This document shows positions 1,709 to 46,493 of a DNA stretch of 64,000 bases, piece by piece. The notes beneath the pieces are model-generated. The model saw only the letters and a list, made by a program, of their open reading frames with translations, ran no database searches and was not told the DNA's origin. Origin of the DNA: a virus; the IMG/VR virus record IMGVR_UViG_3300025875_000007, positions 1 to 64,000 of that record; one strand, given 5' to 3'. The translations under genes and the position numbers were made by a program. The stretch's first letter is position 1. The number at the start of each line of letters is the position of its first letter.

Positions 1709-1897
1709 TTGTCGGCTCGGGAAATCCAGGTTGTAACCCTTATCGCGGAGGGTAAGACCAATAAGCAAATCGGTAACGAACTAGGGTTGTCTGAATACAC
1801 AATCAAATCTCATCTGGATCGCATTGGCTCGGTCTTTGGTGCGAGAGATCGTGCCCAGATTGTGGCTATTGCGTTTCGTAAGGGTTTGCTTACTTAG
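1709..1897 (+). CDS. LuxR/FixJ-type HTH DNA-binding protein (stand-alone, ~62 aa)
   Basis: LSAREIQVVTLIAEGKTNKQIGNELGLSEYTIKSHLDRIGSVFGARDRAQIVAIAF is a near-textbook LuxR C-terminal HTH. TTG 1709 is the first start after the upstream stop; the track ORF opens at 1601. Confidence 0.75.
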   Translation: MSAREIQVVTLIAEGKTNKQIGNELGLSEYTIKSHLDRIGSVFGARDRAQIVAIAFRKGLLT

Positions 1898-1905
1898 GAG
1901 GCTGT

Positions 1906-2022
1906 ATGACTGGCACTCTATTAGACGCACCATTCTTCGAGCTAATTGGTCGTCTTGTTTGTATCTTTCTGCTTCTTTGGTTCTTATTTTGGTTTGGTCG
2001 ATACCTGGATAAGCGGGAATGA
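1906..2022 (+). CDS. small membrane peptide (38 aa)
   Basis: AGGAGG RBS then ATG 1906. [38 protein letters not shown] has one TM. Its stop overlaps the next ATG (ATGA). Confidence 0.4.
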
Positions 2023-3206
2023 TACAAGAACTATATCCCCACCAACAGAAGGCAGTTGAGGAACTTGACAACGGGAAGATCCTCTACGGGGGAACAGGAG
2101 CTGGCAAGAGTAAGACGGCTGCGGCTTATTACGTTCTACGAGAATCGCCGAAGCATGTTTACGTCATTACTACTGCAAAGAAGCGAGACAGCCTTGACTG
2201 GGAAGAGGAGTTCGCAGACTTCCACGTTTACCTCAGGGATGAGGAGCTTGAAGAGGCAGGAGTACTGCGCGAGCATGGAACTCTTGCCGTGGACTCTTGG
2301 AACAATCTCTGGAAGTACAAGGACGTAAAGAATGCTTTCTTCATCTTTGATGAGCAGCGCGTTGTGGGTAGTGGAGAATGGACTAACACTTTCATACGCA
2401 TTGCTAAAGCAAATCGATGGATTCTTCTCACCGCAACCCCCGGCGACACGTGGCTTGATTACATTCCAGTCTTTGTCGCAAATGGATTCTACAAGAATCG
2501 AACCGAGTTCAAGCGAGACCACTGTATTTTCTCGTTTCATGGGAAGTACCCGAAACTCGAGAGATATCTCGCTGTCGGAAAACTCGTACGGCTAAGGAAC
2601 CAACTGCTGGTTGAGATGCCCTTCGAACGGCACACGACCAGGGTAAGTCGAGAGGTCCTTTGTAGTCACGATTCTAAGAAGATGGAACAGGTCACCAAGA
2701 AGCGGTGGCACGTCTTCGAGGAACGGCCGCTGAAGGATGCGGGTGAGCTACATGGTGTTGCGAGGAAGGTTGCTAACTCGGATGACTCTCGCTTCTTGGC
2801 AATTAGAAATCTGCTAACCGTCCATCCGAAGATGATTGTCTTCTACAACTTCGACTATGAATTGGAGATCCTGCGTGAGCTTGCCGAAGACACAATTGTC
2901 GCTGAATGGAATGGTCATAAGCATCAGCCTGTACCGGATAGCGATAGTTGGGTGTATTTGGTACAGTACGTTGCCGGAAACGAGGGTTGGAACTGTACGA
3001 CTACTGACACAATGGTGTTTTACTCCCTCACGTATTCCTATAAAGTTTGGCATCAAGCGCATGGCCGGATTGATCGACTTAATACCCCGTTTGACACAAT
3101 GTACTATTATATCCTCCGTTCAAGTTCTTGGATCGATCTAGCGATTATGAAGAGTTTGAAGCTGAAGAAGAACTTCAACGAGATTAAGGATGGGGTTAAG
3201 TGGTGA
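2019..3206 (+). CDS. SF2 (DEAD/SNF2-like) DNA helicase
   Basis: Walker [12 protein letters not shown], motif II FIFDEQR, motif [11 protein letters not shown]. Confidence 0.85.
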
Positions 3207-3403
3207 ATCCCGTTAGAGTTAAAGTCGGACCGGCCCGTTGGGGGCATCACAGCTATGTGTATGAGTCTCGGCCACTACTTGAGGATTTCGTGTACAAGTA
3301 TTGGCGACCCACCGAAAGGTGGGCGATTAGTCGAGCCTGTCGAAAGCGGAAGCAGCTCATAGCCCATATGCATCGACAGCAACATGTTAGGACTGTGATC
3401 TAA
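3200..3403 (+). CDS. hypothetical protein
   Basis: Track ORF, translationally coupled to the helicase gene. Confidence 0.45.
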
Positions 3404-3620
3404 TAATTAGAGATCGAACACGACTCGACGAACTCCTCGAATCTTGGGGTGCTGCGGCTCCATACGAAGGAACCGGACTCAACCGACTCCCTGAGATCAT
3501 GGAGATCTGTTACGAGAGAGCGCGCGTTACTGGTGTTCGTCAGAAGCTGACTTGGAATGCCCAACACAAGTCATGGTTCGTTTTCAATCTGGAAGATCAA
3601 CCACTACCCTAGGAGCAATA

Positions 3621-3941
3621 ATGACAGACAAAGTGGTTGAGTGGGACATCGATGCGAATCTTCCGATGTACACTCGAGACTACTTGAAGATGAAGACCGA
3701 GGAAGTAAAGAATAGGCCCAGGGTAATTCTCGCAGGGACTACCGAAGCGGCCGTAAACTTCTGCAGAGAGCACAATTTGCACCCGACAGATGTCACTATT
3801 GTGCGAGGAATTACCTCGATTGAGGGTCTTCGATTCCGTTACGAGGATGTCTTTCGAGTTCCGGGATGGTCCAAGAGGACCGATATTGAGGAAATTGAGG
3901 ATCGAATTCTGTCCACGCACATCATTATGTGTCCTCGGTAA
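3621..3941 (+). CDS. hypothetical protein
   Basis: ATG 3621 is preceded by TAGGAGCAATA. The upstream part of track ORF 3552.. has no RBS. Confidence 0.6.
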   Translation: MTDKVVEWDIDANLPMYTRDYLKMKTEEVKNRPRVILAGTTEAAVNFCREHNLHPTDVTIVRGITSIEGLRFRYEDVFRVPGWSKRTDIEEIEDRILSTHIIMCPR

Positions 3942-3949
3942 CTGTCAAA

Positions 3950-4215
3950 TTTGCCAAGATTTTGCCAAGATTTGAAAAACGCTTGGTAAAGATCTTGAAA
4001 AATAAGGCTTCTTTTAGGGCTCGCCACATGGTAATATATGCTGAATTGTTGATCTTGATTTCAAGATCATTGGTAAATTTGGCCACTTTTCACGCTCAGC
4101 ACATGGTCATTTGCCAAGATTATACCCTCCCACTACCTTGTAGAGTAAAAGTGAATTACCATGTGGTAATAGGTACAGAGCTGTAAGAGTTTTTGATGAC
4201 GAAAATCTTGGCAAA
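3950..4215. repeat. iteron/operator-like repeat cluster in a ~295-nt non-coding AT-rich gap
   Basis: The 11-mer TTTGCCAAGAT occurs at 3950-3960, 3961-3971 (tandem) and 4110-4120, with its reverse complement at 4205-4215. A perfect palindrome TGATCTTGA-TT-TCAAGATCA is at 4050-4069, and GATCTTGA recurs at 3990. CCACATGGTAATA at 4024-4036 is matched by CCATGTGGTAATA at 4159-4171. Confidence 0.6.
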
Positions 4216-4236
4216 TAATCTGAGGAGTCATACAAA

Positions 4237-4545
4237 ATGGATGAGCAACCAAAGCACGAAGTTGAAGACGATTCTGACGACTTCGCCAGATCGTTAATTT
4301 CTCTGGTGGATCTCGTTCAAGGCGGAGCAACATCCGACGAGGCGTTGGGCATTTCTGCTTCGTATGGGAACCACGATCTTCGACAGTACCTTGAGCCCGG
4401 CGTAAACGGGAGACCACAAGTACGAGCCTTTGGTCCAGAACTGGCCACCCCATATCAAAACTCGAGAGACTTCTGGATCGCCCAACGCCGCGCAATAGCA
4501 CATCACTTCGCAACCTATCCGGATCCTGAAAATCGTAAGGAGTGA
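4237..4545 (+). CDS. hypothetical protein
   Basis: Track ORF with a GAGGAG RBS upstream of the ATG. Confidence 0.6.
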   Translation: MDEQPKHEVEDDSDDFARSLISLVDLVQGGATSDEALGISASYGNHDLRQYLEPGVNGRPQVRAFGPELATPYQNSRDFWIAQRRAIAHHFATYPDPENRKE

Positions 4546-4551
4546 TGCAAA

Positions 4552-4812
4552 ATGGACAACCGACCGGTTCTCGTTCGAATCGTTGCGGCTTTACAATCAG
4601 CCGGTATTCGAGGCGTGCCCTTTAATTCGATTACCTTAGTGTTGGGTACATCAGCTAATGAGAGACTTACAAAGGAGCTGGAAACGCTTGCCGCCCTTAC
4701 CGAGTCGTTTCCCATAAACACGTATCAGACGTTTGTGGGACTGCCAAAGACTAGTCGAACCGATGTCGATCCAAATGCGGTTGTCATTACTTGTTCGCCT
4801 ATACACGCCTAA
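4552..4812 (+). CDS. hypothetical protein
   Basis: Track ORF with an AAGGAG RBS upstream. Confidence 0.6.
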   Translation: MDNRPVLVRIVAALQSAGIRGVPFNSITLVLGTSANERLTKELETLAALTESFPINTYQTFVGLPKTSRTDVDPNAVVITCSPIHA

Positions 4813-4821
4813 GGAGAGCAT

Positions 4822-5148
4822 ATGTTAGTGTTTTGGCTATCGCTAGTCATGGCAGCTGCTGGCTGTCTTGGTTTGTTCTTGGCAGGCAAAGGCAAGTGGC
4901 AAGGCTGGGCGATTGGTTTAGCAGTCCAATCCGTGTGGATGGTCTTTGCAATTATTACCGAAGCCTACGGTCTCATCATCACCGCCATTATGTATGCGGT
5001 TGTTTACGGCCGAAACCTAATCAAGTGGTACAAAGAACGGGATGAGTCACGGTTTGCCACCAACGCGGTTGCTTCGGGGGTATATAGTGTTAATGAACTT
5101 CGAGAAATGTTAAGGAAGTCCGATGGAGGAAACCCGAGTAATTCCTGA
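4822..5148 (+). CDS. membrane protein (about 3 TM)
   Basis: AAGGAGAG RBS. Hydrophobic stretches: FWLSLVMAAAGCLGLFLAG, WAIGLAVQSVWMVFAII, GLIITAIMYAVVY. Confidence 0.65.
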   Translation: MLVFWLSLVMAAAGCLGLFLAGKGKWQGWAIGLAVQSVWMVFAIITEAYGLIITAIMYAVVYGRNLIKWYKERDESRFATNAVASGVYSVNELREMLRKSDGGNPSNS

Positions 5149-5620
5149 CTTCCCCGAGTATGGCGTCGCAAAAACCGGTGTCGTGTACAACCTATCAACC
5201 GAGAAGGTTCGGAAACCGTCTCTTACAAGAGAGGGCGCAGCTAAGATCACACTCTTTCGAGGAGGCAAGCCATACACACGATCTCTACCAAAGATTGTGG
5301 CCGATGTTTGGTTGTGGAATGATTTCGACCCACAAATCTTCGACACCCCGATTCATCTCGACAACGATCTATCAAACAACCATGTAGACAACCTGGCTTG
5401 GCGTCCTCGATGGTTCGCAGTCAAGTACCAACGACAGTACTGGAATGAAGAGTACCGTTACTCAAAGACTGTGGTCGAGGACATCAAGACAGGCGAGATT
5501 TACAAGAGTATTATGGACGCTTGTCAAAAGTACGGCTATCTCTACCTGGATGTGCTGAAGTCCTGTACGAAAGGAGACGAGGTTTACCCAACATGGAGGA
5601 AATTCCGGTTTCTGACCTAA
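5123..5620 (+). CDS. HNH homing endonuclease (NUMOD4-like N-terminus)
   Basis: IPDFPEYGVAKTGVVYN is NUMOD4-like. HLDNDLSNNHVDNLAW is an HNH_3-type core. Confidence 0.8.
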   Translation: MEETRVIPDFPEYGVAKTGVVYNLSTEKVRKPSLTREGAAKITLFRGGKPYTRSLPKIVADVWLWNDFDPQIFDTPIHLDNDLSNNHVDNLAWRPRWFAVKYQRQYWNEEYRYSKTVVEDIKTGEIYKSIMDACQKYGYLYLDVLKSCTKGDEVYPTWRKFRFLT

Positions 5621-5631
5621 CATGGTAATAG

Positions 5632-5659
5632 TTCGCGTACAATACGTGGCCTATAATAG
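5632..5659 (+). promoter_or_regulatory. phage promoter-motif copy (TTCGCG-N14-TATAAT)
   Basis: TTCGCG at 5632-5637, a 14-nt spacer, TATAAT at 5652-5657. It lies upstream of the nuclease/RNAP gene string. Confidence 0.5.
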
Positions 5660-5717
5660 AAGGGGTGAGGGTTTGCTTCTTGTTTTTGCCTGATTTTTCG
5701 ACGAAAGGGAGACTCTA

Positions 5718-6059
5718 ATGCGACGAAAGTTAGAGTCTCCCTTTCAATCTCGCTGGATTAAAAGGCTTGAGGCCGAATTTCCAGGCTGTATCATACTCAA
5801 ACTTGATGCCAACTATCGACAGGGCATTCCTGATCTCCTTATGCTCTGGGAGATTTATTGGGCTACGTTTGAAGTTAAGAAGACCCGACCGACGAAAGAA
5901 AGCGACTTCGAGCCAAATCAGGAATGGTACATAGCAAAGATGGACTCAATGTCGTTCTCTGCGTGCGTCTACCCCGAGAACGAAGAGGAGATCGTAGATG
6001 CGCTTCAACGACAATTCAAAACTCGCAGGGCAGCACTCGTTTCTAAGCGCAAGCAGTAG
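5718..6059 (+). CDS. VRR-NUC / PD-(D/E)XK nuclease
   Basis: GIPDLLML...ATFEVKK fits the PD...(D/E)xK pattern at VRR-NUC size. Confidence 0.65.
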   Translation: MRRKLESPFQSRWIKRLEAEFPGCIILKLDANYRQGIPDLLMLWEIYWATFEVKKTRPTKESDFEPNQEWYIAKMDSMSFSACVYPENEEEIVDALQRQFKTRRAALVSKRKQ

Positions 6060-6558
6060 CTCTTGGGTAAATTACGACGACGAGAAGCTTGATCGTGTTT
6101 ATCTGAGTCGACAGGCTGCAAAGCGTGGTACGGACTTTCACGATCTCGCCCAGCGATGCATCACGCTCAACCAAAGACTTCCTGAGTTCCCAGTTACGAC
6201 TATGGGGCTCTATGTTAACGATGCCATCGGCTTTCGGATGAAGCCTGAGGTTACCCTCTTTTATTCGATTAACGCATTCTGTACAACAGATTGCATTTCG
6301 TTTCGAAAGAACATGCTCCGGATTCACGACCTGAAGATGGGGCTTGGGCACACCTCAGAGCGTCAGCTTGAAGTTTATGCGGCTTACTTCTGTCTCGAGT
6401 ACGGTGTTCGTCCATTCGACATCGAGACCGAACTTCGGATTTATCAGAACAACGAGGCACGGATCTATGAAGCCGATCCTGTGACCATCTCTCTCATTAT
6501 GCAAAAGATCGTTGCGTTCGACAGGCGTATCAATCAGCTTAGGGAGGACTCTGAGTGA
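5998..6558 (+). CDS. PD-(D/E)XK exonuclease (Cas4/RecB-like phage exonuclease)
   Basis: The N-terminal HSFLSASSSSW matches the S(A/P)SSxxRW-type opening of phage exonucleases. IHDLKMG is the D-x-K motif and QLEVYAAY the QhxxY motif. ATG 5998 is the only start upstream of the first motif, which gives a 62-nt overlap. Confidence 0.6.
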   Translation: MRFNDNSKLAGQHSFLSASSSSWVNYDDEKLDRVYLSRQAAKRGTDFHDLAQRCITLNQRLPEFPVTTMGLYVNDAIGFRMKPEVTLFYSINAFCTTDCISFRKNMLRIHDLKMGLGHTSERQLEVYAAYFCLEYGVRPFDIETELRIYQNNEARIYEADPVTISLIMQKIVAFDRRINQLREDSE

Positions 6559-9287
6559 TTTTCCAGTATGAGGATTACATATCGCACTACGGAACTCCTC
6601 GGAAGTCTGGACGATACCCTTGGGGCTCCGGTACGAAAGATGAGAAGATCTATGAGGGAAGTTTTCTAGACATCACGTCTAAGATGGAACGTGATGGCAT
6701 GAAGCCCCTCGAGATCGCAAAAGGGTTCGGTATCACGACGACCCAGCTTCGTGCTCGCAAGACCATCGAGAGCAACGAGCGAAAGAATCAGAAGTTTGCA
6801 GATGTCAAGAAGCTCCATGACAAGCAAATGGGCCCTTCTGCGATTGGTAAGCAGTTAGGTCTTTCTGAGTCTTCTGTTCGCTCTGTGATTGCTTCGATGA
6901 ACAAGGAGCAAAAGGCGAACATCCATACCGTCGCCAAGATTCTTAAAGACGAAGTGGATGAGAAGAAGTACGTTCAGATTGGTACTGGTGTTGAGCATCT
7001 TCCCGTCATGGGCAACATTTCAGCAAACCGTCTGAAGAATGCTGTCGGTATTCTCGAAGAGGATGGCTACACAGTCCATTCTGTACAGGTGGACCAGATT
7101 GGCACTCCTGGACAAAAGACTACCGTTAAGGTTCTTACTCCTCCCGGAACGACGTATCGGGATGTGGACAACAACAAAGAACAAATTCGTCTTCCTGGTA
7201 AGTGGACCGATGATGGTGGCGACACTTTCCACGGTCCCAAGCCTCCTTTGAACATTGACCCTAAGCGGGTTGCGGTTCGATACAAGGAGCAAGGTGGTGA
7301 CGAGGCTGACGGTGTCATCTTTGTTCGTCCTGGCAAAGAAGACATCGCCATTGGCGGAAAGAACTATGCACAGGTTCGTATCGCTGTTGGTGGTACGCAC
7401 TATCTTAAGGGTATGGCCGTTTACAAAGACGACCTGCCTGATGGCGTAGATCTTCTGTTCAATACGAACAAGAGCGATACAGGCAACAAGCTCGACGCCA
7501 TGAAGAAGCAGGAGAAAGATCCGACTACCGCAACAAGGCGGAATCCAGACGGAACGCCCGATTTGGATTCTGCAAAGATTAATGAGACGAATCCCTTCGG
7601 ATCTCAGATTCGTCGGCAGATTCTTGATCTAGAAGGTAAGAAGGCCGTCTCGGCTATGAACCTTCTGGATGAAGAGGGAACTTGGTCTGACTGGAACAAG
7701 TCTCTTTCTTCTCAGGTTCTGTCTAAGCAGTCTCCTGTTCTGGCTAAGCAGCAGCTTGATGTCAAACGTCAGCGTATGAGGGAAGACCTTGACGAGATCA
7801 AGTCTCTGACCAACCCCGTTGTTCGTAAGCACCTTCTTGAGGCCTTTGCTGATGGTGCTGATTCTTCGGCAGTACACCTTGACGCTGCGCACATTCCTCG
7901 TCAGTCAACGCACGTTCTGCTTCCGGTTAAGAGTCTTAAGGCTAGTGAGGTTTACGCACCAAATTACGATGATGGCGAAACGGTTGTTCTGATTCGCTTT
8001 CCTCATGGTGGCAAGTTCGAAATTCCGGAACTCACGGTAAACAACAAGAATCGTGAAGCCATCAAGATGATGGGTAAGCGGCCTCCGGATGCTGTTGGTA
8101 TCAACTCCAAGGTTGCAGAACGACTTTCTGGTGCGGACTTTGATGGGGACACTGTTCTTGTCATTCCGAATAGTCCTAACAACCCTCGTCGTATTCGTAA
8201 CGAGGCAGCACTTAAGTCTTTGCAGGGATTCGATCCTAAGTCATACAAGCTTCCTGATGATGCACCAAAGATGTCTTCGAAGACTAAGGGCATTGAGATG
8301 GGTAAGGTTTCTAACCTTATCACTGACATGACGATTAAGGGTGCCAGCAACGAAGAGCTTGCTCGAGCTGTAAAGCACTCTATGGTAGTCATTGATGCTG
8401 AAAAGCACCATCTCGATTACAACAAGTCTTTTAGAGACCACGCCATTGGGGCTTTGAACGAACGATACATGAATGGGCCTAAGGGTGGAGCTTCGACTCT
8501 GATCTCAAGGGCTACGTCTATGGATCGTGGCGTTGACAAGATGGTTCCTCGTAAGGCATCTGAAGGCGGTCCTATCGATCCTAAGACGGGTCGTAAGATG
8601 CTAGTTCCTGATACCTATCTTACTCGTGATGGTGTTACTATCACTAAGAAGATGGACATTGAAAAGTTAGCGAATACTAATGACGCTTTCTCTTTGGTGT
8701 CTAAGGAACGTACTAAGATCGAGGAAGTTTACGCCGAGCATTCTAATGCTCTTAAAGAGTTTGCTAATGAGGCTCGTAGAGAGGTGTACGCATACAAGCC
8801 TCCTAGAGTAGACCTCAATGCTAAGAAGGTTTATAAGACTGAGGTTGCTAGCCTTGTGTCTAAGCTCAATGTTGCACGAGCTAATAAGCCTTTGGAGAGG
8901 CAGGCTCAACTCTTTGCCAATGCTGTGGTGGCTAAGCAGAAAGAAGCTGATCCCACCATGGATAGGGCTAGGCTTAAGAAGATTGAGGCCCAAGCATTAG
9001 CAACTGCTCGTGCTAGGGTACAGGCTAACAAGCACAAGATTGTACCTACTGATGAAGAGTGGGCCGCCATCCAGGCAAGGGCGGTTACACCTAACCAGCT
9101 TCAGCAGATGCTGTCTAATGCTGACCTAGATGCAGTGCGTACACTTGCTACACCTCGTGCTAGAACGGCTCTATCTCCTGCTAAGATAGCCCGTATCAAT
9201 AGCATGGCTGCACGAGGATTCAATCAGGCTGACATTGCTACTGCTTTGGGCCTATCCCCAGCAGTGGTTAGGGAAGTATTCAACTGA
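6555..9287 (+). CDS. candidate single-subunit two-barrel RNA polymerase (YonO-like) with fused HTH domains
   Basis: aa 279-304, GGTHYLKGMAVYKDDLPDGVDLLFNT, resembles the beta DPBB motif GRHGNKG...DMP..G..DIVLNP. aa 478-537, VLIRFPHGG...AVGINSKVAERLSGADFDGDTVLV, resembles the beta-prime NRAPTLHR...NADFDGDQMAV (ADFDGD at nt 8133-8150). HTH-like segments sit at aa ~50-70, ~92-115 and ~884-906. Confidence 0.6.
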   Translation: MIFQYEDYISHYGTPRKSGRYPWGSGTKDEKIYEGSFLDITSKMERDGMKPLEIAKGFGITTTQLRARKTIESNERKNQKFADVKKLHDKQMGPSAIGKQLGLSESSVRSVIASMNKEQKANIHTVAKILKDEVDEKKYVQIGTGVEHLPVMGNISANRLKNAVGILEEDGYTVHSVQVDQIGTPGQKTTVKVLTPPGTTYRDVDNNKEQIRLPGKWTDDGGDTFHGPKPPLNIDPKRVAVRYKEQGGDEADGVIFVRPGKEDIAIGGKNYAQVRIAVGGTHYLKGMAVYKDDLPDGVDLLFNTNKSDTGNKLDAMKKQEKDPTTATRRNPDGTPDLDSAKINETNPFGSQIRRQILDLEGKKAVSAMNLLDEEGTWSDWNKSLSSQVLSKQSPVLAKQQLDVKRQRMREDLDEIKSLTNPVVRKHLLEAFADGADSSAVHLDAAHIPRQSTHVLLPVKSLKASEVYAPNYDDGETVVLIRFPHGGKFEIPELTVNNKNREAIKMMGKRPPDAVGINSKVAERLSGADFDGDTVLVIPNSPNNPRRIRNEAALKSLQGFDPKSYKLPDDAPKMSSKTKGIEMGKVSNLITDMTIKGASNEELARAVKHSMVVIDAEKHHLDYNKSFRDHAIGALNERYMNGPKGGASTLISRATSMDRGVDKMVPRKASEGGPIDPKTGRKMLVPDTYLTRDGVTITKKMDIEKLANTNDAFSLVSKERTKIEEVYAEHSNALKEFANEARREVYAYKPPRVDLNAKKVYKTEVASLVSKLNVARANKPLERQAQLFANAVVAKQKEADPTMDRARLKKIEAQALATARARVQANKHKIVPTDEEWAAIQARAVTPNQLQQMLSNADLDAVRTLATPRARTALSPAKIARINSMAARGFNQADIATALGLSPAVVREVFN

Positions 9288-9583
9288 TGGAAGGAAGGGT
9301 AATGGCTGATACAGTAATTGAGCAAATGCTTAGCACAGTAGACAACCCATTCAATCCATTCCATCAGTTCAAAGAATGGCATCAATGGGATACACATGCT
9401 GGGTACCACACACTGGGTTACCTAGCCCGCATTGCAGTGGTATCGCCTGATCTGTCAGAGGCTGACTACAATCGTATCGTTGATGATGCAATGGAAGAGA
9501 TTGTAGCAGAGAACCTATATGGTGTGCACTGCAGGGTGACACCACTGACCAAGACACCACTGATGACACAGGCTGCAGCATAG
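9287..9583 (+). CDS. conserved phage protein of unknown function
   Basis: Track ORF coupled to the upstream stop; alternative ATG at 9302 after GGAAGG. I recall the DNPFNPFHQFKEW motif from other Gram-positive phage proteins. Confidence 0.6.
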   Translation: MEGRVMADTVIEQMLSTVDNPFNPFHQFKEWHQWDTHAGYHTLGYLARIAVVSPDLSEADYNRIVDDAMEEIVAENLYGVHCRVTPLTKTPLMTQAAA

Positions 9584-9590
9584 ACACCCC

Positions 9591-9842
9591 CATGCTGTAG
9601 CATGGCATGGCACGCCATGCATAGCACCACCCTTGCTGCCTACCAACCGATGCATACATTGGTCGGTTGGTAGGCAGTCAAGTATTCCTCACACAATTAT
9701 TCATGATGTCGCAATAGACGACGCAATTAATTATGAATAGTTGTGTGAGGAATACATGGCCTCTCGCCGTTTGCAACTTAACGGACACATCGGACATATG
9801 AGATAGGGGGGGGAGGGGGGTCTTCGCAAACCCACCCCCCTC
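9591..9842. repeat. cluster of five inverted repeats/hairpins in a non-coding gap
   Basis: CATGCT-GT-AGCATG at 9591-9604. GCATGGC-AC-GCCATGC at 9605-9620. 15-bp stem CTGCCTACCAACCGA/TCGGTTGGTAGGCAG at 9636-9677. 23-nt arms (22/23) at 9682-9704 and 9733-9755. G-run/C-run hairpin GAGGGGGG/CCCCCCTC at 9813-9842. Confidence 0.6.
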
Positions 9843-9935
9843 TTCCATCGCTGCCCTCCTATATTTTCCCCCGGCGGGAATTTTCGTGGGAGGTTTTCAT
9901 GATCATCTTCGGCGGGGTGCCTCAGGAGACAACCC

Positions 9936-10100
9936 ATGGACAAGCACTACCTAGCCCATCTACTTGAGATGTATCCCGTCGAGCACTTCCGAAGTCGCCT
10001 GAGTGAAGTCGTGGCCGTCTCGGATGCTAAGAAGCTCGGGGCCCGAAAGCAGTATGAGAAGAACAGGCAACGGAGGAGCCGCGACAGTGAGCATCGCTGA
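9936..10100 (+). CDS. small basic protein (54 aa), hypothetical
   Basis: ATG 9936 to TGA 10098-10100: MDKHYLAHLLEMYPVEHFRSRLSEVVAVSDAKKLGARKQYEKNRQRRSRDSEHR. It is below the track size cutoff. Confidence 0.35.
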   Translation: MDKHYLAHLLEMYPVEHFRSRLSEVVAVSDAKKLGARKQYEKNRQRRSRDSEHR

Positions 10101-10551
10101 TCCAGTTAGAGTAGAAGCGTTGCATAAGTCTGGTCTCTTACGTCATGACTTAGGTAAGCGCCTTGACATCCTGTGCGAAACCGCAACCGAGCTTGTAGGA
10201 TGTCCTGTCTCCTACATCAACCTTCTTGACAAAGAGCAGCAGTACACTGTTGGTAGCTATCCACCAAGGGTTCGCAAAAGCAGCAAGGTAGAAACTACCG
10301 GTTGTGAAGAAGTGATCGCTTCAAAGAATGTCGTCAACGTACCAGACACTCGTTTGCATCCTGTAATGTGTATGCGAGAGTTCGTGACCGTTGCGGGTAT
10401 GTTGGCCTACCTCGGTGTTCCAGTTCTTTATGGAAAGCAAGTGGTTGGATCGTTCTGTGCGTTGGACTATGAGCCACGCGAATGGGCGTTCTGGCAAGTC
10501 GAGGCTCTTAAGGGTCTCGCAAGTTTAACATCAGCCGCCGCGCTGAGATAG
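10087..10551 (+). CDS. stand-alone GAF-domain protein
   Basis: DPVRVEALHKSGLL...LDILCETATELVGCPVSYINLLDKEQQYTVGS...VPDTRLHP...YLGVPVLYGKQVVGSFCALDYEPREW follows the bacterial GAF pattern. GTG 10087 lies 9 nt after GGAGGA; the track ORF opens at 10003. Confidence 0.7.
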   Translation: MSIADPVRVEALHKSGLLRHDLGKRLDILCETATELVGCPVSYINLLDKEQQYTVGSYPPRVRKSSKVETTGCEEVIASKNVVNVPDTRLHPVMCMREFVTVAGMLAYLGVPVLYGKQVVGSFCALDYEPREWAFWQVEALKGLASLTSAAALR

Positions 10552-17810: not shown

Positions 17811-18353
17811 ATGGCCTTTGTAGATGACTTTTTAGAGCATTACGGCACCAAAGGTATGAAGTGGGGCGTTCGAAAGAAGAGTAAGCCTCGTCCAGCTTTC
17901 ATGCCGCCCGTTAAGTCTGGTTCTGGGAAGCCAAAATGGCAGTCGCCTCCGGCTAAAAAGGTTGCTACACCAACACCTTCGGCTCCGAGAAAGGTAAAGC
18001 CAACCCTTTTACCTTTCCAAAAAAAGAAGACGCCAAAGGTTCTCTCCGAGGAAGCGCAGCAGTTCCGCGATATTCGAGCAAAGGCTAAGCGTGATGGTGT
18101 TTCGGCACTGTCCAACAAGGAGCTTGAGCTGATCAATAAGCGCCTCGAGTTGCAGTCGAAGTACAATAAGGCGTTTCCCAAGAAGAAGAATCCTTTTGTG
18201 GAAGTGGCCATCGATGGAATTCTTTCCGACTACGGAACCAAAACCGTTGTTAAATTGGTAAAGGACAAGAACCCCGTGATGGGCCTTGCCGTCGAAGCGG
18301 CGCTGGAGCTCAACAAGCAATCCCGTAAGGGTAACTCGTCTAAGAACAAGTAG
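17811..18353 (+). CDS. Lys-rich protein with N-terminal HYGxxGMKWG motif
   Basis: MAFVDDFLEHYGTKGMKWGVRKKSKPRP. GGAAGGAGGG RBS. Confidence 0.7.
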   Translation: MAFVDDFLEHYGTKGMKWGVRKKSKPRPAFMPPVKSGSGKPKWQSPPAKKVATPTPSAPRKVKPTLLPFQKKKTPKVLSEEAQQFRDIRAKAKRDGVSALSNKELELINKRLELQSKYNKAFPKKKNPFVEVAIDGILSDYGTKTVVKLVKDKNPVMGLAVEAALELNKQSRKGNSSKNK

Positions 18354-18362: not shown

Positions 18363-18827
18363 ATGGATGTTTCAGACGCACCTGCTAGTCAGGGAATTAT
18401 GATTGCGTTCCTCCCGACGAATGCTGAATGGTGTAGCATGGAGCTTCCGCATATGACGCTCGTCTATGCGGGAACTACCGATAAGCGAACCCCAAGTGAT
18501 TTCAGCGCACTTGCGAAGGACGCATCAACAGTAGCTATGCTGTTTAGGCCTTTTGTTCTTCCTGTTATGGATCTCGCTGTTTTCGGCGAAGAGGATAAGG
18601 TCGATGTTCTGCGATTTCGTCTAACGCCAGAGCTGCTGGCGGCTAGACGTATTGTCGAAAAGTGGAACATGAGCCAACATTCGTTCAGGCCACATGCAAC
18701 AATTGGTCCAGCACAAACACATGTAGATGTTCGAGATTTTCCTCGAATGGTTCGCTTCGACCGACTCATGGTTGGTTGGGGCAACGAACATTTGACGTTT
18801 AATCTGAACAATAGATACGAGGATTGA
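18363..18827 (+). CDS. 2H phosphoesterase superfamily protein (LigT-like / Acb1-like)
   Basis: Two H-x-T motifs at the expected spacing: PHMTLVY and RPHATIGP. 154 aa. Confidence 0.65.
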   Translation: MDVSDAPASQGIMIAFLPTNAEWCSMELPHMTLVYAGTTDKRTPSDFSALAKDASTVAMLFRPFVLPVMDLAVFGEEDKVDVLRFRLTPELLAARRIVEKWNMSQHSFRPHATIGPAQTHVDVRDFPRMVRFDRLMVGWGNEHLTFNLNNRYED

Positions 18828-18841: not shown

Positions 18842-20590
18842 ATGGGTTTATCTAATACCGCAGTACCAAGATATTACGGTGAGTTTCGAGATGCAGTTCT
18901 AGATGGCGAGATTCCTGTAAATCGGGAAATCGCACTAGAGATGAATCGTATTGATGCACTCATCGCCAACCCGAACATCTATTACGACGACATGGCAGTG
19001 GAAGGTTTCATTCTCTATTGTGAGAAAGAACTTACCCTGACTGATGGAGGTGATCTGAATCTGCTCCCCTCATTCAAGGTGTGGGCGGAGCAAATCTTTG
19101 GCTGGTACTACTTCGTTGAGCGAAGTGTGTATGAGCCAGACCCAGACAACCGAGGCGGACGCTACGTCACCAAGACGATCCGAAAGCGTCTGACCACCAA
19201 GCAGTACTTGATTGTGGCTCGTGGAGCCGCCAAGTCCATGTATGCCGCTTGCATTCAGGCATACTACTTGAATGTTGATACAGACACCACGCACCAAATT
19301 ACAACTGCGCCAACCATGAAGCAGGCCGACGAGGTTATGTCGCCGTTTCGAACTGCGATTGTTCGTGCTCGAGGTCCTCTCTTCAAGTTCCTCACTGAGG
19401 GCTCGATGCAGAATACAACGGGCTCTAAGGCGATGCGTGTGAAGCTCGCATCGACAAAGAAGGGTATCGAGAACTTCCTTACGGGATCGATTCTCGAGAT
19501 CCGACCGATGGCAATCAACAAACTTCAGGGACTCCGTCCCAAAGTGTCCACAATCGATGAGTGGCTTTCGGGCGACCTTCGTGAGGATGTCGTTGGTGCG
19601 GTCGAACAGGGCGCGTCGAAGCTTGACGATTACCTTATTGTGGCTATCAGTTCCGAGGGTACTGTCCGTAACGGATCTGGTGACACAATCAAGATGGAGT
19701 TGGCTGACATCCTCAAGGGTGACTATCTTGCTCCTCATATTTCGATCTGGCACTACAAGCTTGATGAGCTGGAAGAAGTAAACGAGCCCGAGACATGGTT
19801 GAAGGCCAACCCCAATTTGGGAAAGACCGTCACTTACGAGACGTATCATTTGGATGTTGAGCGAGCTGAGAAGGCTCCTGCATCACGTAACGATATTCTC
19901 GCTAAGCGATTCGGTATTCCTATGGAGGGGTACACATACTTCTTCACGTACGAGGAGACTCTCCCCGACGAGCGCAAGCGAAGCTTCTGGAACATGCCTT
20001 GTTCTTTGGGTGCTGACCTTTCTCAGGGTGATGACTTCTGTGCATTCACTTTCCTGTTCCCGCTCTCTCGTGGAGCATTTGGCGTTAAGACTCGCAGCTA
20101 TATCACCTCTCTAACGTTAATGAAGCTACCGGGTGCTATGCGAGCAAAGTATGAAGAGTTTATCCGAGAGGGTAGCCTTCACGTTCTTGAAGGCACCATC
20201 CTTGACATGATGGATGTGTATGACGATCTCGATCGTTATATTCAGCATGAAAATTGGGATGTGCGAACCTTCGGATTTGACCCATACAACGCCAAGGAAT
20301 TTGTTGCACGTTGGGAAACCGAGAACGGCCCCTTTGGCATCGAGAAGGTTATTCAGGGAGCTCGGACGGAATCAGTTCCTCTGGGCGAGCTTAAGATTCT
20401 TGCCTCGGAAGGGCTGCTTCTCTTCGACCAGTCGTTGATGCAGTTTGCTATGGGTAACGCCATCACGCTTGAAGACACAAACGGTAACCGAAAGCTTCTT
20501 AAGAAGCGACAAGACGAGAAGATTGATAATGTGGCGGCCCTTATGGATGCCTACATTGCATGGAAGGCCAACAAGGAGGCGTTTGAGTAA
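18842..20590 (+). CDS. terminase large subunit
   Basis: Size and position upstream of the portal. P-loop-like VARGAAKS. ATG 18842 follows AAGGGAGGG; the track ORF opens at TTG 18824. Confidence 0.85.
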   Translation: MGLSNTAVPRYYGEFRDAVLDGEIPVNREIALEMNRIDALIANPNIYYDDMAVEGFILYCEKELTLTDGGDLNLLPSFKVWAEQIFGWYYFVERSVYEPDPDNRGGRYVTKTIRKRLTTKQYLIVARGAAKSMYAACIQAYYLNVDTDTTHQITTAPTMKQADEVMSPFRTAIVRARGPLFKFLTEGSMQNTTGSKAMRVKLASTKKGIENFLTGSILEIRPMAINKLQGLRPKVSTIDEWLSGDLREDVVGAVEQGASKLDDYLIVAISSEGTVRNGSGDTIKMELADILKGDYLAPHISIWHYKLDELEEVNEPETWLKANPNLGKTVTYETYHLDVERAEKAPASRNDILAKRFGIPMEGYTYFFTYEETLPDERKRSFWNMPCSLGADLSQGDDFCAFTFLFPLSRGAFGVKTRSYITSLTLMKLPGAMRAKYEEFIREGSLHVLEGTILDMMDVYDDLDRYIQHENWDVRTFGFDPYNAKEFVARWETENGPFGIEKVIQGARTESVPLGELKILASEGLLLFDQSLMQFAMGNAITLEDTNGNRKLLKKRQDEKIDNVAALMDAYIAWKANKEAFE

Positions 20591-21144
20591 TGATACTCAA
20601 TGAAACCAAACCGCCTCTGGCGGAGGCTGTGGACCTGGCACACTACGGAGTGCCAGGCATGAAGTGGGGGCGTCGTAAGGGTCGTTCGTCTAACGACGAG
20701 GACTATGACGATATGCTTGAGCAGGAGAGACACGAACGCAACAAGCGAATTGTTGCTGGAAGCGCTCTTGCTGCCGTTGGCGCGGTTGCTACGGTAGCCG
20801 TTCTACATAAGACCGGCGTTGTTAAAATCAATCCCGATCTCATTGCTAAGGGCAAGGAAGCCGCAGCTAAGCTTCGCGAGTCATCTGAGAAAGAGACAAC
20901 TCGCGGTAAGATTCCGTTCAACGCGGCTGCTGACGCATATAAAAAGTCTCGTGAACGGTACAAAGATTCTGACTTTGCAAAGCGTACGTTCGAGCCCGAT
21001 CGTGCTAACCCTCTTTGGCGCGTTGATAAAACAAAGACTCCGTTAGCTACCAGTCTTGCCGACGTGCTTTTGGGTAGAGGTGTTCACACGATTCACACAT
21101 TAAACAACGACGTTTGGGCCACTCCAGTCGGCAGAAAGAGGTGA
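20590..21144 (+). CDS. protein with HYGxxGMKWG motif and one TM
   Basis: LAHYGVPGMKWGRRKGRSSN. TM IVAGSALAAVGAVATVAVL. It lies between terminase and portal. Confidence 0.7.
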   Translation: MILNETKPPLAEAVDLAHYGVPGMKWGRRKGRSSNDEDYDDMLEQERHERNKRIVAGSALAAVGAVATVAVLHKTGVVKINPDLIAKGKEAAAKLRESSEKETTRGKIPFNAAADAYKKSRERYKDSDFAKRTFEPDRANPLWRVDKTKTPLATSLADVLLGRGVHTIHTLNNDVWATPVGRKR

Positions 21145-41633: not shown

Positions 41634-41661
41634 GTCGCGATATTTACATCTCCTATAAAGG
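41634..41661 (+). promoter_or_regulatory. promoter-motif copy (GTCGCG-N14-TATAAA)
   Basis: TCGCG at 41635-41639, hexamer at 41654-41659, 29 nt before ATG 41688. Confidence 0.5.
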
Positions 41662-41687
41662 AAGCCCCCCTCTACGTTAGGAGAAAT

Positions 41688-41978
41688 ATGTTCAGCAAGA
41701 AGCCTTGCCCTGAAGAGACGGAGCTTAACACCGAGATCACTCGCGTGCTTGCCGTGCTTGCACGATGTGAGCCCGATTCCGACGAGTACACCAGCGCAGT
41801 CAAGAACCTCGCGACGCTGTACGCGCAGAAGGAGACCCTTCCTGTCACGCGCGTCAGCCCCGACACGTTCTGGACCGTCGTTGCCAACCTCGCCGGACTC
41901 GCTCTCGTCACGCAGTACGAGCGCGCGAACGTCCTCGGTGGTTACGCCATCAAGCTCGTCAGGCAGCTGAAGAACTGA
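41688..41978 (+). CDS. hypothetical protein (96 aa)
   Basis: Track ORF with an AGGAGA RBS. High GC3. Confidence 0.7.
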   Translation: MFSKKPCPEETELNTEITRVLAVLARCEPDSDEYTSAVKNLATLYAQKETLPVTRVSPDTFWTVVANLAGLALVTQYERANVLGGYAIKLVRQLKN

Positions 41979-42007
41979 GCAGTCCCCGCTAGACCCTTCC
42001 GAAGTCG

Positions 42008-42080: not shown

Positions 42081-42108
42081 GTCGCGTGATATTCATCGCC
42101 TATAATGA
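42081..42108 (+). promoter_or_regulatory. promoter-motif copy
   Basis: GTCGCG-N14-TATAAT(42101-42106)-GA. Confidence 0.55.
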
Positions 42109-42137
42109 CCCGACTCCACCAATTCTAAGGAGATCCG

Positions 42138-42375: not shown

Positions 42376-42403
42376 GGAGCCCCTCACAAGGGCTCTAGTC
42401 TTT
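42376..42403 (+). terminator. conserved hairpin + TAGTCTTT module
   Basis: GAGCCC/GGGCTC stem, then TAGTCTTT at 42396-42403. Confidence 0.5.
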
Positions 42404-42429
42404 CGCGAGATATTCACGCCCTATAATGA
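42402..42429 (+). promoter_or_regulatory. promoter-motif copy
   Basis: TTCGCG-N14-TATAAT(42422-42427)-GA. Confidence 0.55.
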
Positions 42430-42454
42430 CCAGCCCTCAACCTCAGGAGTTCGC

Positions 42455-42585: not shown

Positions 42586-42616
42586 AAGTCTATGTAACCC
42601 ATAGGCTTTACGTCTT
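42586..42616 (+). terminator. conserved hairpin module
   Basis: AAGTCTATG/CATAGGCTT 9-bp stem, then TACGTCTT. Confidence 0.5.
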
Positions 42617-42642
42617 CGCGGATATTACACGGACTATAACGA
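42615..42642 (+). promoter_or_regulatory. promoter-motif copy
   Basis: TTCGCG-N14-TATAAC(42635-42640)-GA. Confidence 0.5.
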
Positions 42643-42668
42643 CCCCGCTCACAACATCAGGAGTAGAC

Positions 42669-42879: not shown

Positions 42880-42880
42880 A

Positions 42881-42908
42881 TTCGCGAGAAAAACAAGCCC
42901 TATAATGA
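42881..42908 (+). promoter_or_regulatory. promoter-motif copy
   Basis: TTCGCG-N14-TATAAT(42901-42906)-GA. Confidence 0.55.
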
Positions 42909-42939
42909 CCCAACCACTACAACTGTTAGGAGCCCCACC

Positions 42940-43266: not shown

Positions 43267-43440
43267 ATGGCTGCATCCTTCGTCGATCCTAAACTTGATG
43301 AGTTCATAAAGTTCTTAGAAAGCCTTTCGGAAATTCCCCTGTCTCCTTGGCAAAAAGAGCTTGCAAAGGTGGTTTTAAGCGGTAAGAAGTTCCGCATCGT
43401 CCAAGGTCGCAAGGGATCGTACATCGTGACAGACGCGTAA
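43267..43440 (+). CDS. 57-aa protein, hypothetical (AT-richer insert, no motif promoter)
   Basis: TAGGAG RBS. MAASFVDPKLDEFIKFLESLSEIPLSPWQKELAKVVLSGKKFRIVQGRKGSYIVTDA. Confidence 0.45.
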   Translation: MAASFVDPKLDEFIKFLESLSEIPLSPWQKELAKVVLSGKKFRIVQGRKGSYIVTDA

Positions 43441-43459
43441 CTTTCACGCCCTATAGTGA
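43432..43459 (+). promoter_or_regulatory. promoter-motif copy (ACGCG variant)
   Basis: ACGCG(43433-43437)-N14-TATAGT(43452-43457)-GA. Confidence 0.45.
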
Positions 43460-43494
43460 AAGACCCATCGCCATCCCGACAGAAAGAAGTCGTC

Positions 43495-44079: not shown

Positions 44080-44107
44080 CTCGCGTTATATTCATCTCCT
44101 ATAGTGA
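44080..44107 (+). promoter_or_regulatory. promoter-motif copy
   Basis: CTCGCG-N14-TATAGT(44100-44105)-GA. Confidence 0.55.
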
Positions 44108-44135
44108 AGACCCCCTACCCCATCAAGGAGATCCC

Positions 44136-44456: not shown

Positions 44457-44484
44457 GTCGCGTAAAAAACACGCACTATAATGA
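44457..44484 (+). promoter_or_regulatory. promoter-motif copy
   Basis: GTCGCG-N14-TATAAT(44477-44482)-GA. Confidence 0.55.
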
Positions 44485-44511
44485 CCCGACCCATCTGATT
44501 GGAGAGCCCCC

Positions 44512-44787: not shown

Positions 44788-44815
44788 ATCGCGACATATA
44801 CATATCCTATAGTGA
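44788..44815 (+). promoter_or_regulatory. promoter-motif copy
   Basis: ATCGCG-N14-TATAGT(44808-44813)-GA. Confidence 0.55.
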
Positions 44816-44843
44816 ACGTCCATCTCTCACGAAGGAGTTTTAT

Positions 44844-45991: not shown

Positions 45992-46019
45992 TTCGCGATA
46001 TTTACATCGCCCATAGTGA
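45992..46019 (+). promoter_or_regulatory. promoter-motif copy
   Basis: TTCGCG-N14-CATAGT(46012-46017)-GA. Confidence 0.5.
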
Positions 46020-46140
46020 AGAAATATCCCTTACTATGGAGTGTAAGATGAGATCACTGTGTTATGTCAATAGCACCCCCGGAAGCCCTGACAAGCGGAC
46101 AAATTGTGAAACTTCTTTCCCTTTTATTTTTGGAGGAAAC

Positions 46141-46341: not shown

Positions 46342-46369
46342 TTCGCGTAAAATACACATCCCATAGTAG
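46342..46369 (+). promoter_or_regulatory. promoter-motif copy
   Basis: TTCGCG-N14-CATAGT(46362-46367)-AG. Confidence 0.5.
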
Positions 46370-46493
46370 AGGAGTCCTGAAAAGGATCCGAGACACTAAT
46401 GTGTAGGTGAAAACCCTACCCGGAGTGGTAGCCATTAAAGATAAGGCTACTTAACGGACTGTTTTAGTTGGACAGTCACCTCCTCTATTTTTT
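46368..46493 (+). ncRNA. ~125-nt structured RNA / leader closed by a long-range stem and a U-run
   Basis: AGAGGAG (46368-46374) pairs with CTCCTCT (46480-46486), followed by ATTTTTT. Internal hairpins: GTAGCC/GGCTAC and GACTGT/ACAGTC. There is no credible ORF. Confidence 0.45.

Follow-up and report, generated by a model that had tools for sequence, protein, structure and literature searches.

Among the RNA polymerases (RNAPs) built as one chain, YonO of phage SPbeta and gp64 of phage P23-45 are DNA-dependent transcriptases. For YonO, which reads the late genes of SPbeta as a single operon with one start site, neither the promoter nor any initiation factor is known (PMC5467207). The family of Lactococcus phage 1706 was placed among five 'YonO-like' families in 2010, when its polymerase nature was proposed (NAR; PMC2919709), and a polymerase of an actinophage supercluster with the DxDGD signature and helix-turn-helix (HTH) segments at both termini was proposed in 2019-2021 (bioRxiv 10.1101/842583). 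Both studies reached the polymerase reading by HHpred and motif inspection, and the second is silent on promoters or transcription. Here, we describe a member of this family encoded in a 64,000-nt stretch of viral DNA (positions 1 to 64,000 of IMG/VR record IMGVR_UViG_3300025875_000007), referred to below as the window. The open reading frame (ORF) at 6555..9287 on the plus strand, which has a GTG start, encodes a 910-aa protein that is probably the phage's own single-chain DNA-dependent RNAP with built-in DNA-recognition modules. Whether these modules recognize a repeated motif of about 30 bp as the promoter of the polymerase is, in our judgment, evenly balanced, and a more tentative extension is that the first polymerase molecules travel in the virion and are delivered to the cell along with the DNA.

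The ORF had been picked out in an initial sequence-only reading as a candidate self-contained RNAP of an unusual kind, and its reality is now far beyond chance. The family phrog_4291, named 'RNA-dependent RNA polymerase' (RdRP) in PHROGs, covered residues 4-907 of the 910 (E = 0, 1154.8 bits). In a large protein collection, the relatives formed more than 8,000 clusters at 90% identity, and an exhaustive profile search of 1.84 billion representatives yielded at least 1,132 clusters at 50% identity (E <= 1e-30), nearly all of which were 870-1,070 aa long with the same end-to-end architecture. The gene was found by tblastn in 250 deposited phage genomes, mainly in phages of Arthrobacter (95), Gordonia (55), and Streptomyces (54) and in 1706-like phages of Lactococcus (13), with gut and oral siphoviruses among the remaining carriers. 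The best identity to an isolated phage was 52.6%, and a megablast search of the polymerase region against phage genomes returned no close nucleotide relative. The homologs of phages 1706, Bilo, and Circum aligned over the full length, including the N-terminal peptide, the tandem N-terminal HTH, the core, and the C-terminal HTH. Most of the 250 deposited records name the gene 'helix-turn-helix DNA-binding domain protein', and some RefSeq records call it an RdRP. The polymerase reading thus gained support, and the family is not new, its RNAP motifs and HTHs at both termini having been published before.

An AlphaFold2 model built on 47 homologs had a mean predicted local distance difference test score (pLDDT) of 79.2, with values above 90 over residues ~230-310 and ~450-540. 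In a Foldseek comparison with the Protein Data Bank (PDB), the top ten matches were QDE-1 (best E = 1.2e-8, probability 1.0), followed by the non-virion RNAP gp62 of P74-26 (6.9e-6) and by maize and Arabidopsis RDR2 (4e-5 to 1e-3). These proteins accounted for the top 17 matches, after which came the beta-prime/Rpb1 subunits of cellular RNAPs (E = 0.009-0.1). No fold other than two-barrel polymerases was present among the PDB matches, so that the check named in the sequence-only reading pointed to this class of enzyme and to no other. Among predicted viral structures (BFVD), the best matches were a phage 'RdRP', P23-45 gp64, and crAss-like proteins, the last of these being weak. The predicted core of the protein contains the following elements:

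7269..7463, plus strand, aa ~239-303: first (beta-like) double-psi beta-barrel, with strands 239-242, 254-257, 271-278, 282-290, and 300-303 (pLDDT > 90)
7905..8168, plus strand, aa ~451-538: second (beta-prime-like) double-psi beta-barrel, with strands 451-457, 465-467, 476-481, 492-495, 513-516, and 533-538
8136..8150, plus strand: codons of D528-F-D530-G-D532, the predicted catalytic Asp triad, invariant in all alignments
8277..8408, plus strand, aa 575-618: two long conserved helices after the second barrel (575-595 and 599-618), with the segments MGxVSNLITDMT and ARAVKHSMVVIDAEKH and with near-invariant residues

The predicted order, with the beta-like barrel ahead of the beta-prime-like barrel and its DFDGD loop in one chain, is as had been proposed. 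The modeled strand patterns of residues 239-303 and 451-538 would fit two six-stranded barrels, and the helices at 575-618 are a candidate bridge-helix-like element. The segments quoted in the initial reading are present at their residues, with GGTHYLKGMAVYKDDLPDGVDLLFNT at 279-304, VLIRFPHGG from 478, and ADFDGD at 527-532 (nt 8133-8150). The invariant positions of the first barrel are D252-G253, YAQVR (271-275), T281-H282-Y283, K285-G286-M287-A288, P295, and D299, while those of the second are R481-x-P483-H484 and the predicted metal-binding loop SGADFDGD. Across alignments of 47 and 11 homologs, down to the 41%-identity protein of Lactococcus phage 1706, residues D252, K285, R481, P483, D528, D530, and D532 did not vary. 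K291, the second first-barrel lysine that had been proposed, was not retained across the family, since position 291 varies among K, G, R, S, and H.

In two-barrel RNAPs, an R-x-P element precedes the DxDGD loop (R446/P448 in Rpb1 and R962/P964 in QDE-1), and the first barrel contributes a basic pair and a fourth Asp (K979/K987/D837 in Rpb2 and R738/K743/D709 in QDE-1; PMC2919709). In the window protein, R481 lies 47 residues ahead of D528, compared with 45 in QDE-1, and D252 is separated from K285 by 33 residues, compared with 29. Judged by order and spacing, the invariant residues of the window protein appear to correspond to this published set, except for K291. At the level of predicted fold and motif, we consider the two-barrel assignment secure.

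HTH-like segments were located at aa 50-71, 93-115, and 889-909. In the AlphaFold2 model, the helices between residues 37 and 118 are arranged as two tri-helical units with a long helix between them, and residues 875-909 form a three-helix unit:

6660..6920, plus strand, aa 36-122: N-terminal tandem HTH module, with the recognition helix TTTQLR in HTH1, ESSVR in HTH2, and a long joining helix
9177..9281, plus strand, aa 875-909: C-terminal three-helix HTH, with helices 875-886, 891-898, and 902-909

When modeled separately, residues 36-122 had a pLDDT of 88.9. Residues T62, R66, E105, S106, and R109 of this module are invariant. Family-wide, the Pfam models HTH_23, Sigma70_r4_2, Sigma70_r4, and GerE matched 47, 43, 40, and 28 of the 47 members, respectively. 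In relatives of the P0089 type, sigma-region-4 models scored above the cut-off at both the second N-terminal HTH and the C-terminal HTH, with 40.3 bits for Sigma70_r4_2 at the P0089 site equivalent to the latter. The presence of HTH modules at both ends of the polymerase was thus confirmed by the family-level Pfam matches and the model.

The window also contains the 'very regular promoter-like motif' of the initial reading. Five exact copies of TCGCG-N14-TATAAT were counted against 0.08 expected, and a position matrix retrieved 16 copies scoring 31-40 bits, all on the plus strand, compared with a shuffle maximum of 19. No score fell between 12 and 31 bits, and there was no copy on the minus strand of the window. 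The motif spans about 30 bp as TCGCG-N7-ACA-N5-TATAAT-GA, with the consensus TCGCG-nnAaAtACAyg-n-cCTATAaTGA. The copies are listed below, with the distance from the hexamer to the start codon and the presence of a Shine-Dalgarno (SD) sequence where noted:

5633..5660, plus strand: head of the operon of VRR-Nuc, Cas4-like exonuclease, polymerase, and phrog_4303; 33.1 bits
41635..41662, plus strand: first copy of the early array, 2 nt after the holin stop; 34.4 bits; ATG 29 nt after the hexamer, SD
42082..42109, plus strand: motif copy; 39.4 bits; ATG at +32, SD
42403..42430, plus strand: motif copy; 39.2 bits; ATG at +28, SD
42616..42643, plus strand: motif copy; 31.0 bits; ATG at +29, SD
42882..42909, plus strand: motif copy; 39.6 bits; GTG at +34, SD
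43433..43460, plus strand: motif copy; 34.1 bits
43764..43791, plus strand: motif copy; 31.7 bits; ATG at +28, SD
44081..44108, plus strand: motif copy; 37.5 bits; ATG at +31, SD
44458..44485, plus strand: motif copy; 40.3 bits; ATG at +30, SD
44789..44816, plus strand: motif copy; 34.6 bits
45606..45633, plus strand: motif copy; 38.0 bits; ATG at +32
45993..46020, plus strand: motif copy; 37.3 bits; ATG at +31, SD
46343..46370, plus strand: start of the replication module; 35.0 bits
49440..49467, plus strand: replication module; 38.7 bits
63534..63561, plus strand: replication module; 36.4 bits

Thirteen copies lie at 41635-46343, the replication-module copies are those at 46343, 49440, and 63534, and the copy at 5633 is the operon head. 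Each small early gene is headed by a copy, as are three replication operons and the operon of the polymerase, and the structural (late) module at 10-41 kb has none. For 11 of the 13 early copies, the hexamer is followed after 28-34 nt by a start codon that has a Shine-Dalgarno sequence. Therefore, the copies behave as promoters with short leaders. There is no -35 or extended -10 element at the motif, and its spacing is unlike that of sigma-70 promoters. A standard host promoter was considered for the copy at 5633 and rejected, since a sigma-70 scan around the polymerase gene gave 14 sites, compared with 9.9 ± 3.2 expected, and did not call this one.

Three further observations concern the regions around the motif. 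In the early-gene array (42000-46000), the GC skew is strongly negative (-0.17 and -0.14) despite the plus-strand location of all genes, and it is positive in the rest of the window. Each motif copy is followed by a C-rich leader (GACCC...). Just upstream of the helicase gene, positions 1673-1897 encode a 74-aa HTH protein of the GerE/LuxR type, which could be another candidate factor acting on the repeated motif.

The motif architecture, its strand bias, and its genomic positions recur in three isolates, namely Arthrobacter phage Circum (nine copies, 21-35 bits), Streptomyces phage Bilo (five copies), and Lactococcus phage 1706 (four weaker copies of 11-17 bits, compared with a shuffle maximum of 8.4). 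Circum and Bilo each have one copy just upstream of the nuclease-exonuclease-polymerase operon, where none of the four copies of 1706 is found. In a scan of 80 IMG/VR relatives (45-67% identity) with a generic matrix, 73 plus-strand and four minus-strand matches were obtained, compared with six in shuffles. Thirty-two of the matches were in the bin from -1000 to -500 relative to the polymerase start, with a peak about 0.9 kb upstream. The best score between -1600 and -300 exceeded 10 bits in 33 of 68 loci (median position -919), but in only one of 68 within-gene controls of equal length. The parts of the motif that do not belong to a sigma-factor site (TCGC and TTACA) are conserved across phages of Actinobacteria and Firmicutes, which points to a phage-encoded protein as the reader. 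The polymerase was the only conserved HTH-bearing protein identified, and its invariant recognition helices parallel the invariant DNA motif. The promoters of the P23-45 RNAPs were assigned by the same logic of co-occurrence. The motif was absent from 50 kb of SPbeta around yonO. It was not found in the portal-fusion contigs described below either, which is uninformative because they cover only structural regions.

A possible association with the virion is suggested by a short peptide at the N-terminus of the polymerase, which has counterparts in the head module:

6579..6632, plus strand, aa 9-26: predicted-disordered N-terminal peptide ISHYGTPRKSGRYPWGSG (pLDDT < 50), invariant including in 1706
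17811..18353, plus strand: head-module ORF before the terminase gene, with an N-terminal DUF7211 of sequence HYGTKGMKWG (PF23847, E = 1e-12, above the cut-off)
20590..21144, plus strand: ORF between the terminase and portal genes, with the DUF7211 sequence HYGVPGMKWG (PF23847, E = 5e-9, above the threshold)

The polymerase peptide ('HYG...WG') resembles the 25-residue Pfam family DUF7211 (HYGvKGMKWG) and is a candidate virion-incorporation or processing signal. In Bilo, DUF7211 occurs twice in gp6 (2269-3171), a GNAT acetyltransferase encoded beside the terminase, and in 1706 it is present in the 'structural protein' orf7 (2501-3889), beside the connector and terminase genes. GenBank also labels the polymerase homolog of 1706 (orf75) a 'structural protein', as it does two small ORFs in the replication module of that phage; labels of this kind in the 1706 record reportedly derive from virion proteomics. 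The DUF7211 peptide precedes or separates the domains of several otherwise unrelated proteins encoded beside the terminase and portal genes, and it is all that many PHROGs have in common. It looks like a portable signal, for capsid targeting, portal docking, or protease cleavage, and no literature on it was found. A weak 2H-like ORF (18363-18827) lies between the first DUF7211 ORF and the terminase gene. In the polymerase relatives P0134 and P0138, a 2H phosphoesterase domain (2_5_RNA_ligase2) is fused before the complete polymerase, which makes the HYG peptide internal.

In two outliers of the family, both HTH regions are missing, and the polymerase core forms the C-terminal half of proteins of about 1,800 aa. 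The N-terminal part of P0149 is a portal domain (PF04860, 102.7 bits against a cut-off of 39.1), and its gene (1866-7235) is an uninterrupted frame of 1,789 codons on a high-GC phage contig (Logan SRR12949875_86554), preceded by a terminase-like ORF (PDB TerL, E = 4e-5) and followed by genes for an S78 prohead protease and the major capsid protein. The gene of P0159 (2-5658 of SRR26502144_9484, an independent sample) has the same head-module position, directly after the portal gene. The ORF fragment preceding it encodes the C-terminal end of a portal protein (E = 5e-9), so that the two genes are neighbors and not fused. Identity is 80% between the two cores and 52% between them and the window protein. 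A read-through or assembly artefact was considered for the portal fusion, each arrangement being represented by one contig, and was judged unlikely in view of the uninterrupted frame, the portal position, and the split version in the independent sample. The portal domain of P0149 has further relatives (P0271-P0294) that are giant portals of 1,100-2,250 aa with varied C-terminal domains, including ADP-ribosyltransferase exotoxin (PF03496), NUDIX, SAP, PI3/4-kinase, and LAGLIDADG domains, which suggests a family of portal-tethered injected effectors. No literature on portal-RNAP fusions was evident. An association with the virion is consequently plausible for the polymerase family. A position within or a fusion to virion structural genes was seen only in these outliers, and for the window protein, whose gene lies outside the head module, the association is tentative.

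The window represents a siphovirus genome with a single direction of transcription. The late module (~10-41.6 kb) includes the genes for the terminase (18824), portal (21148), capsid/protease fusion (23700), tape measure (28027), and holin (41100), and is followed by the array of small early ORFs (41.6-46.4 kb). The replication module occupies 46.7-64 kb and continues at 1-9.6 kb, with a 1,255-aa primase/polymerase (53983), a helicase (2019), HNH, VRR-Nuc, and a Cas4-like exonuclease. The polymerase gene is the last large gene of this module, and its surroundings are as follows:

5718..6059, plus strand: VRR-Nuc-like nuclease ORF, first of the operon, syntenic with Bilo gp55 and Circum gp96
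5998..6558, plus strand: Cas4-family exonuclease (phrog_3953, E = 2.2e-70), overlapping the polymerase start codon, with conserved synteny
9287..9583, plus strand: small conserved ORF of phrog_4303 (E = 1.4e-30), always 3' of the polymerase gene (Bilo gp58, 1706 orf76, Circum gp99)
9584..9935, no strand: non-coding gap ahead of the late module that contains four inverted repeats and, at 9866-9880, a terminator-like hairpin

The order of nuclease, Cas4-like exonuclease, polymerase, small ORF, and genome end was found to be shared with the isolated relatives, in which the phrog_4303 ORF is the last gene before the genome end. The structured 352-bp gap of the window corresponds to the physical right end, or the joined genome ends, of these phages, and many related metagenomic contigs stop 300-600 bp past the polymerase gene. 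The inverted repeats in the gap comprise 29-nt arms (9679-9707/9730-9758), perfect 15-nt arms (9636-9650/9663-9677), G-rich/C-rich arms (9798-9848), and a palindrome (9600-9620). A second repeated element that might serve as a late promoter was not found in the gaps of the structural module, only five of which exceed 70 nt. As had been noted initially, no other RNAP subunit was detected, nor any sigma factor, among the ~35 ORFs scanned, a set that omits some small ORFs of a genome that may exceed the window.

An identical polymerase gene is located at 48047-50779 of an 86,798-bp metagenome contig in ENA (ena:ERZ27293403:k141_272686). When placed on this contig, the window would overrun its end by ~18.7 kb, pointing to an assembly that is circular or permuted, or to a second source record. 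A genome of ~87 kb is possible, which would leave ~23 kb beyond the window. Just past the gap, at the start of the late module, an ORF at 10087-10551 encodes GAF domains (PF13185, PF01590), a sensor-type domain unusual for a phage. The replication module contains two paralogous DUF6353 proteins (phrog_2152; 46700-47482 and 51200-52141, E = 2e-77 and 4e-59) and, between them and far from the tail genes, an ORF of the tail-assembly-chaperone family PF23803 (48833-49438, E = 2.5e-42). The capsid gene (23700-25760) encodes a protease-capsid fusion, with a full-length match to phrog_3270 ('head maturation protease') and a match to major head proteins, as in 1706 orf10 and Bilo gp9.

Taken as a working model, the beta-like and beta-prime-like barrels would form one active site in one polypeptide, with D528, D530, and D532 as the predicted Mg-binding residues. 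The N-terminal tandem HTH and the C-terminal HTH would stand in for a separate initiation factor, reading the motif ahead of the early genes, the three replication operons, and the polymerase's own operon. Because the polymerase gene lies behind its own type of promoter, this scheme raises a bootstrapping problem, which virion delivery would solve if delivered polymerase molecules started early transcription; alternatively, leaky host transcription from the TATAAT element could prime the system. In its most far-reaching form, which we regard as unlikely in its entirety, the model describes a self-sufficient, host-independent, promoter-specific polymerase with the promoter TCGC[GA]-N5-TTACA-N5-TATAAT-GA. 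It would be packaged by a DUF7211-like peptide common to other cargo enzymes (GNAT acetyltransferase, 2H phosphoesterase) and injected, and its core would be covalent portal cargo in some lineages.

A number of results weigh against this model. Concerning the core, the global template modeling (TM) scores of the Foldseek PDB matches are low (~0.3), and the Pfam RdRP model PF05183, which matches 21 of 47 family members, reached the window protein only at E = 0.019, below the cut-off. Sequence and profile searches of the PDB returned no polymerase but only HTH look-alikes, and consequently the link to RNAPs is visible at the fold level only. The roles of D252 as the Mg-B Asp and of K285 as the lysine that binds nucleoside triphosphates are proposed from spacing alone, with K291 variable. 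An hhalign comparison of the family profile with the single YonO sequence gave nothing (probability 0.8%). A BLASTP match to YonO (E = 0.087) is not significant by itself and is confined to the second barrel, yet its register is correct, with RFPH/RSPH, DFDGD/DNDGD, and GIEMGKVSNLIT/GINIGEYSNNIT (GIxxGxxSNxIT) aligned in one frame. These values led us to rule out orthology with YonO. Of the initial label 'YonO-like', the placement in the same YonO/QDE-1-like clade therefore holds, while an orthologous relationship does not: the window protein belongs to a separate family that is a clade relative of YonO.

For the HTH modules, the Pfam scores of the window protein itself are below the cut-offs (HTH_23 at the N-terminus, E = 7.8e-5; HTH_38 at the C-terminus, E = 3.6e-4; Sigma70_r4_2, 13.1 bits against 25.7; GerE, 12.1 against 23.5). 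A fold search of the isolated residues 36-122 gave nothing significant (E >= 0.19), the weak matches being generic HTHs of NarL, resolvase, transposase, sigma, and Pax/Tc3 proteins. Without a significant match for the N-terminal module, an identity with 'sigma region 4' cannot be claimed, and the 'sigma-region-4/LuxR' part of the initial HTH assignment is not established. As for the promoter, the motif includes a perfect bacterial -10 hexamer whose distance from the genes is normal, so that it could be read by host RNAP, either unaided or together with a further phage factor. In about half of the relatives (68 loci), no copy was detectable by the matrix used. The evidence for virion association is indirect, consisting of an annotation label, a peptide resemblance for which Pfam calls no DUF7211 in the polymerase, and one fused and one split contig of another lineage without HTH modules. 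Finally, no biochemical or experimental study of this polymerase family was found in the literature.

It is conceivable, though we doubt it, that the protein is instead a late-gene transcriptase of the YonO or T7 kind. Host RNAP would then read the motif through TATAAT, perhaps aided by a phage activator at the -30 TCGCG box in a way comparable to T4 MotA-like activation, and the polymerase would be made from the 5633 operon. Starting in the gap at 9.6-9.95 kb, it would transcribe the tightly packed ~32-kb module of structural and lysis genes in a single long operon or a few of them, with its HTHs reading a single late promoter or shutting early ones. The single-start late operon of YonO is a precedent, the polymerase gene is located directly upstream of the structural module across the gap, and that module, with its five gaps above 70 nt, has neither a motif copy nor a shared element. 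The consensus -10 hexamer and its normal distances to the start codons suit the host enzyme, and if the host enzyme reads the motif, the position of the polymerase gene behind a copy is easily explained. However, the sigma-70 scan does not call the motif, which has no -35 or extended -10 element, and its TCGC and TTACA parts are conserved among phages whose hosts are as far apart as Streptomyces and Lactococcus. Moreover, apart from the small GerE-type ORF, the ORFs scanned offered no sigma factor or other activator candidate, no conserved late-promoter candidate was found, and the hints of a virion location fit an early role better.

Two other readings retain much less weight than a transcriptase of either kind. 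An RNA-dependent RNA polymerase, or a replication-associated enzyme synthesizing primers together with the primase/polymerase, helicase, and nucleases, would agree with the RNA-dependent activity of the closest solved structures (QDE-1 and RDR2), with RdRP as the only polymerase match in Pfam, and with a gene that ends the replication module beside the VRR-Nuc and Cas4-like nucleases. We consider it improbable, because the name 'RdRP' derives from remote homology alone, the phage already has a 1,255-aa primase/polymerase, and the fused HTHs and the genome-wide motif point to the recognition of promoters in double-stranded DNA. YonO and P23-45 gp64 are DNA-dependent, and QDE-1 has DNA-dependent activity as well (PMC9508822). 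The least probable reading, which we would set aside almost completely, is that of a DNA-binding regulator with a dead or structural polymerase-like core. It matches the HTH annotation of most of the 250 records and the fact that the HTHs are the only parts detected by standard Pfam searches, but the catalytic signature is invariant over more than 1,000 divergent clusters from phages of two host phyla, a conservation of catalytic residues not expected of a dead enzyme, and the portal-fused relatives keep the core while dropping the HTHs.

As far as our searches show, the cross-phylum promoter-like motif tied to the gene, the DUF7211-like peptide, and the portal-fused or portal-adjacent variants are apparently unreported. 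They change the classification of the locus less than they add to its value for experiments. For the question of how minimal single-chain relatives of RNAP find their promoters, this family offers a tractable case, with putative recognition modules fused to the enzyme, a sharp multi-copy candidate promoter, and a set of about 250 cultured phages whose hosts (Arthrobacter, Gordonia, Streptomyces, and Lactococcus) are easy to work with. Most of these genomes carry the gene under the bare name 'HTH DNA-binding protein', so that current accounts of how a large, widespread supercluster of phages is transcribed are probably inaccurate. If virion delivery were true, it would represent a third delivery route for two-barrel RNAPs, after the crAss-like cargo and the P23-45 tape-measure fusion, and it would give the DUF7211 peptide a function.

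Compared with the known systems, the window protein shares with YonO a phage origin and both barrels in one chain, and the RxPH, DxDGD, and GIxxGxxSNxIT motifs of the two proteins are in register with similar spacing. They differ in that there is no statistically significant sequence similarity and no terminal HTH segments were aligned, YonO itself not having been scanned for HTHs. QDE-1 of Neurospora and plant RDR2, also single-chain two-barrel enzymes, are the best structural matches over most of the chain (E = 1e-8 to 1e-3), with 10-12% identity and a global TM-score of ~0.3. Unlike the window protein, they are eukaryotic and use RNA or single-stranded DNA templates without HTH modules or promoter-specific initiation.

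The phage RNAPs gp64 of P23-45 and gp62 of P74-26 are single-chain two-barrel enzymes and significant fold matches of the window protein. As in the window, conserved promoter motifs co-occur with the P23-45 enzymes, while the promoters themselves differ, and gp64 (616 aa) did not align with the HTH regions of the window protein. In gp96 of P23-45, an RNAP is fused to the tape measure, which is a precedent for fusion to a virion protein; in the outliers of the present family, the partner is the portal. The RNAPs of crAss-like phage phi14:2 (gp66) and of phage N4 are injected with the DNA for early genes, and the same strategy would apply here if the virion hints hold. Both are very large virion proteins (~3,400 aa for the N4-like virion RNAP), and the N4 enzyme has an unrelated, T7-like fold.

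The closest relatives are 1706 ORF75 and the actinophage family (phrog_4291), with full-length homology to the window protein at 41-53% identity. This family extends over Arthrobacter (clusters AM, AU, and AW), Gordonia (DJ), Streptomyces (BI), Rhodococcus (CC), and Microbacterium (EL) phages and the Faecalibacterium phage oengus. The window differs from the isolates in its ~87-kb metagenomic source contig, compared with mostly 43-61 kb in the isolates, and has in common with them the N-terminal peptide, the tandem N-terminal and single C-terminal HTHs, the catalytic motifs, the synteny, and the promoter-like motif.

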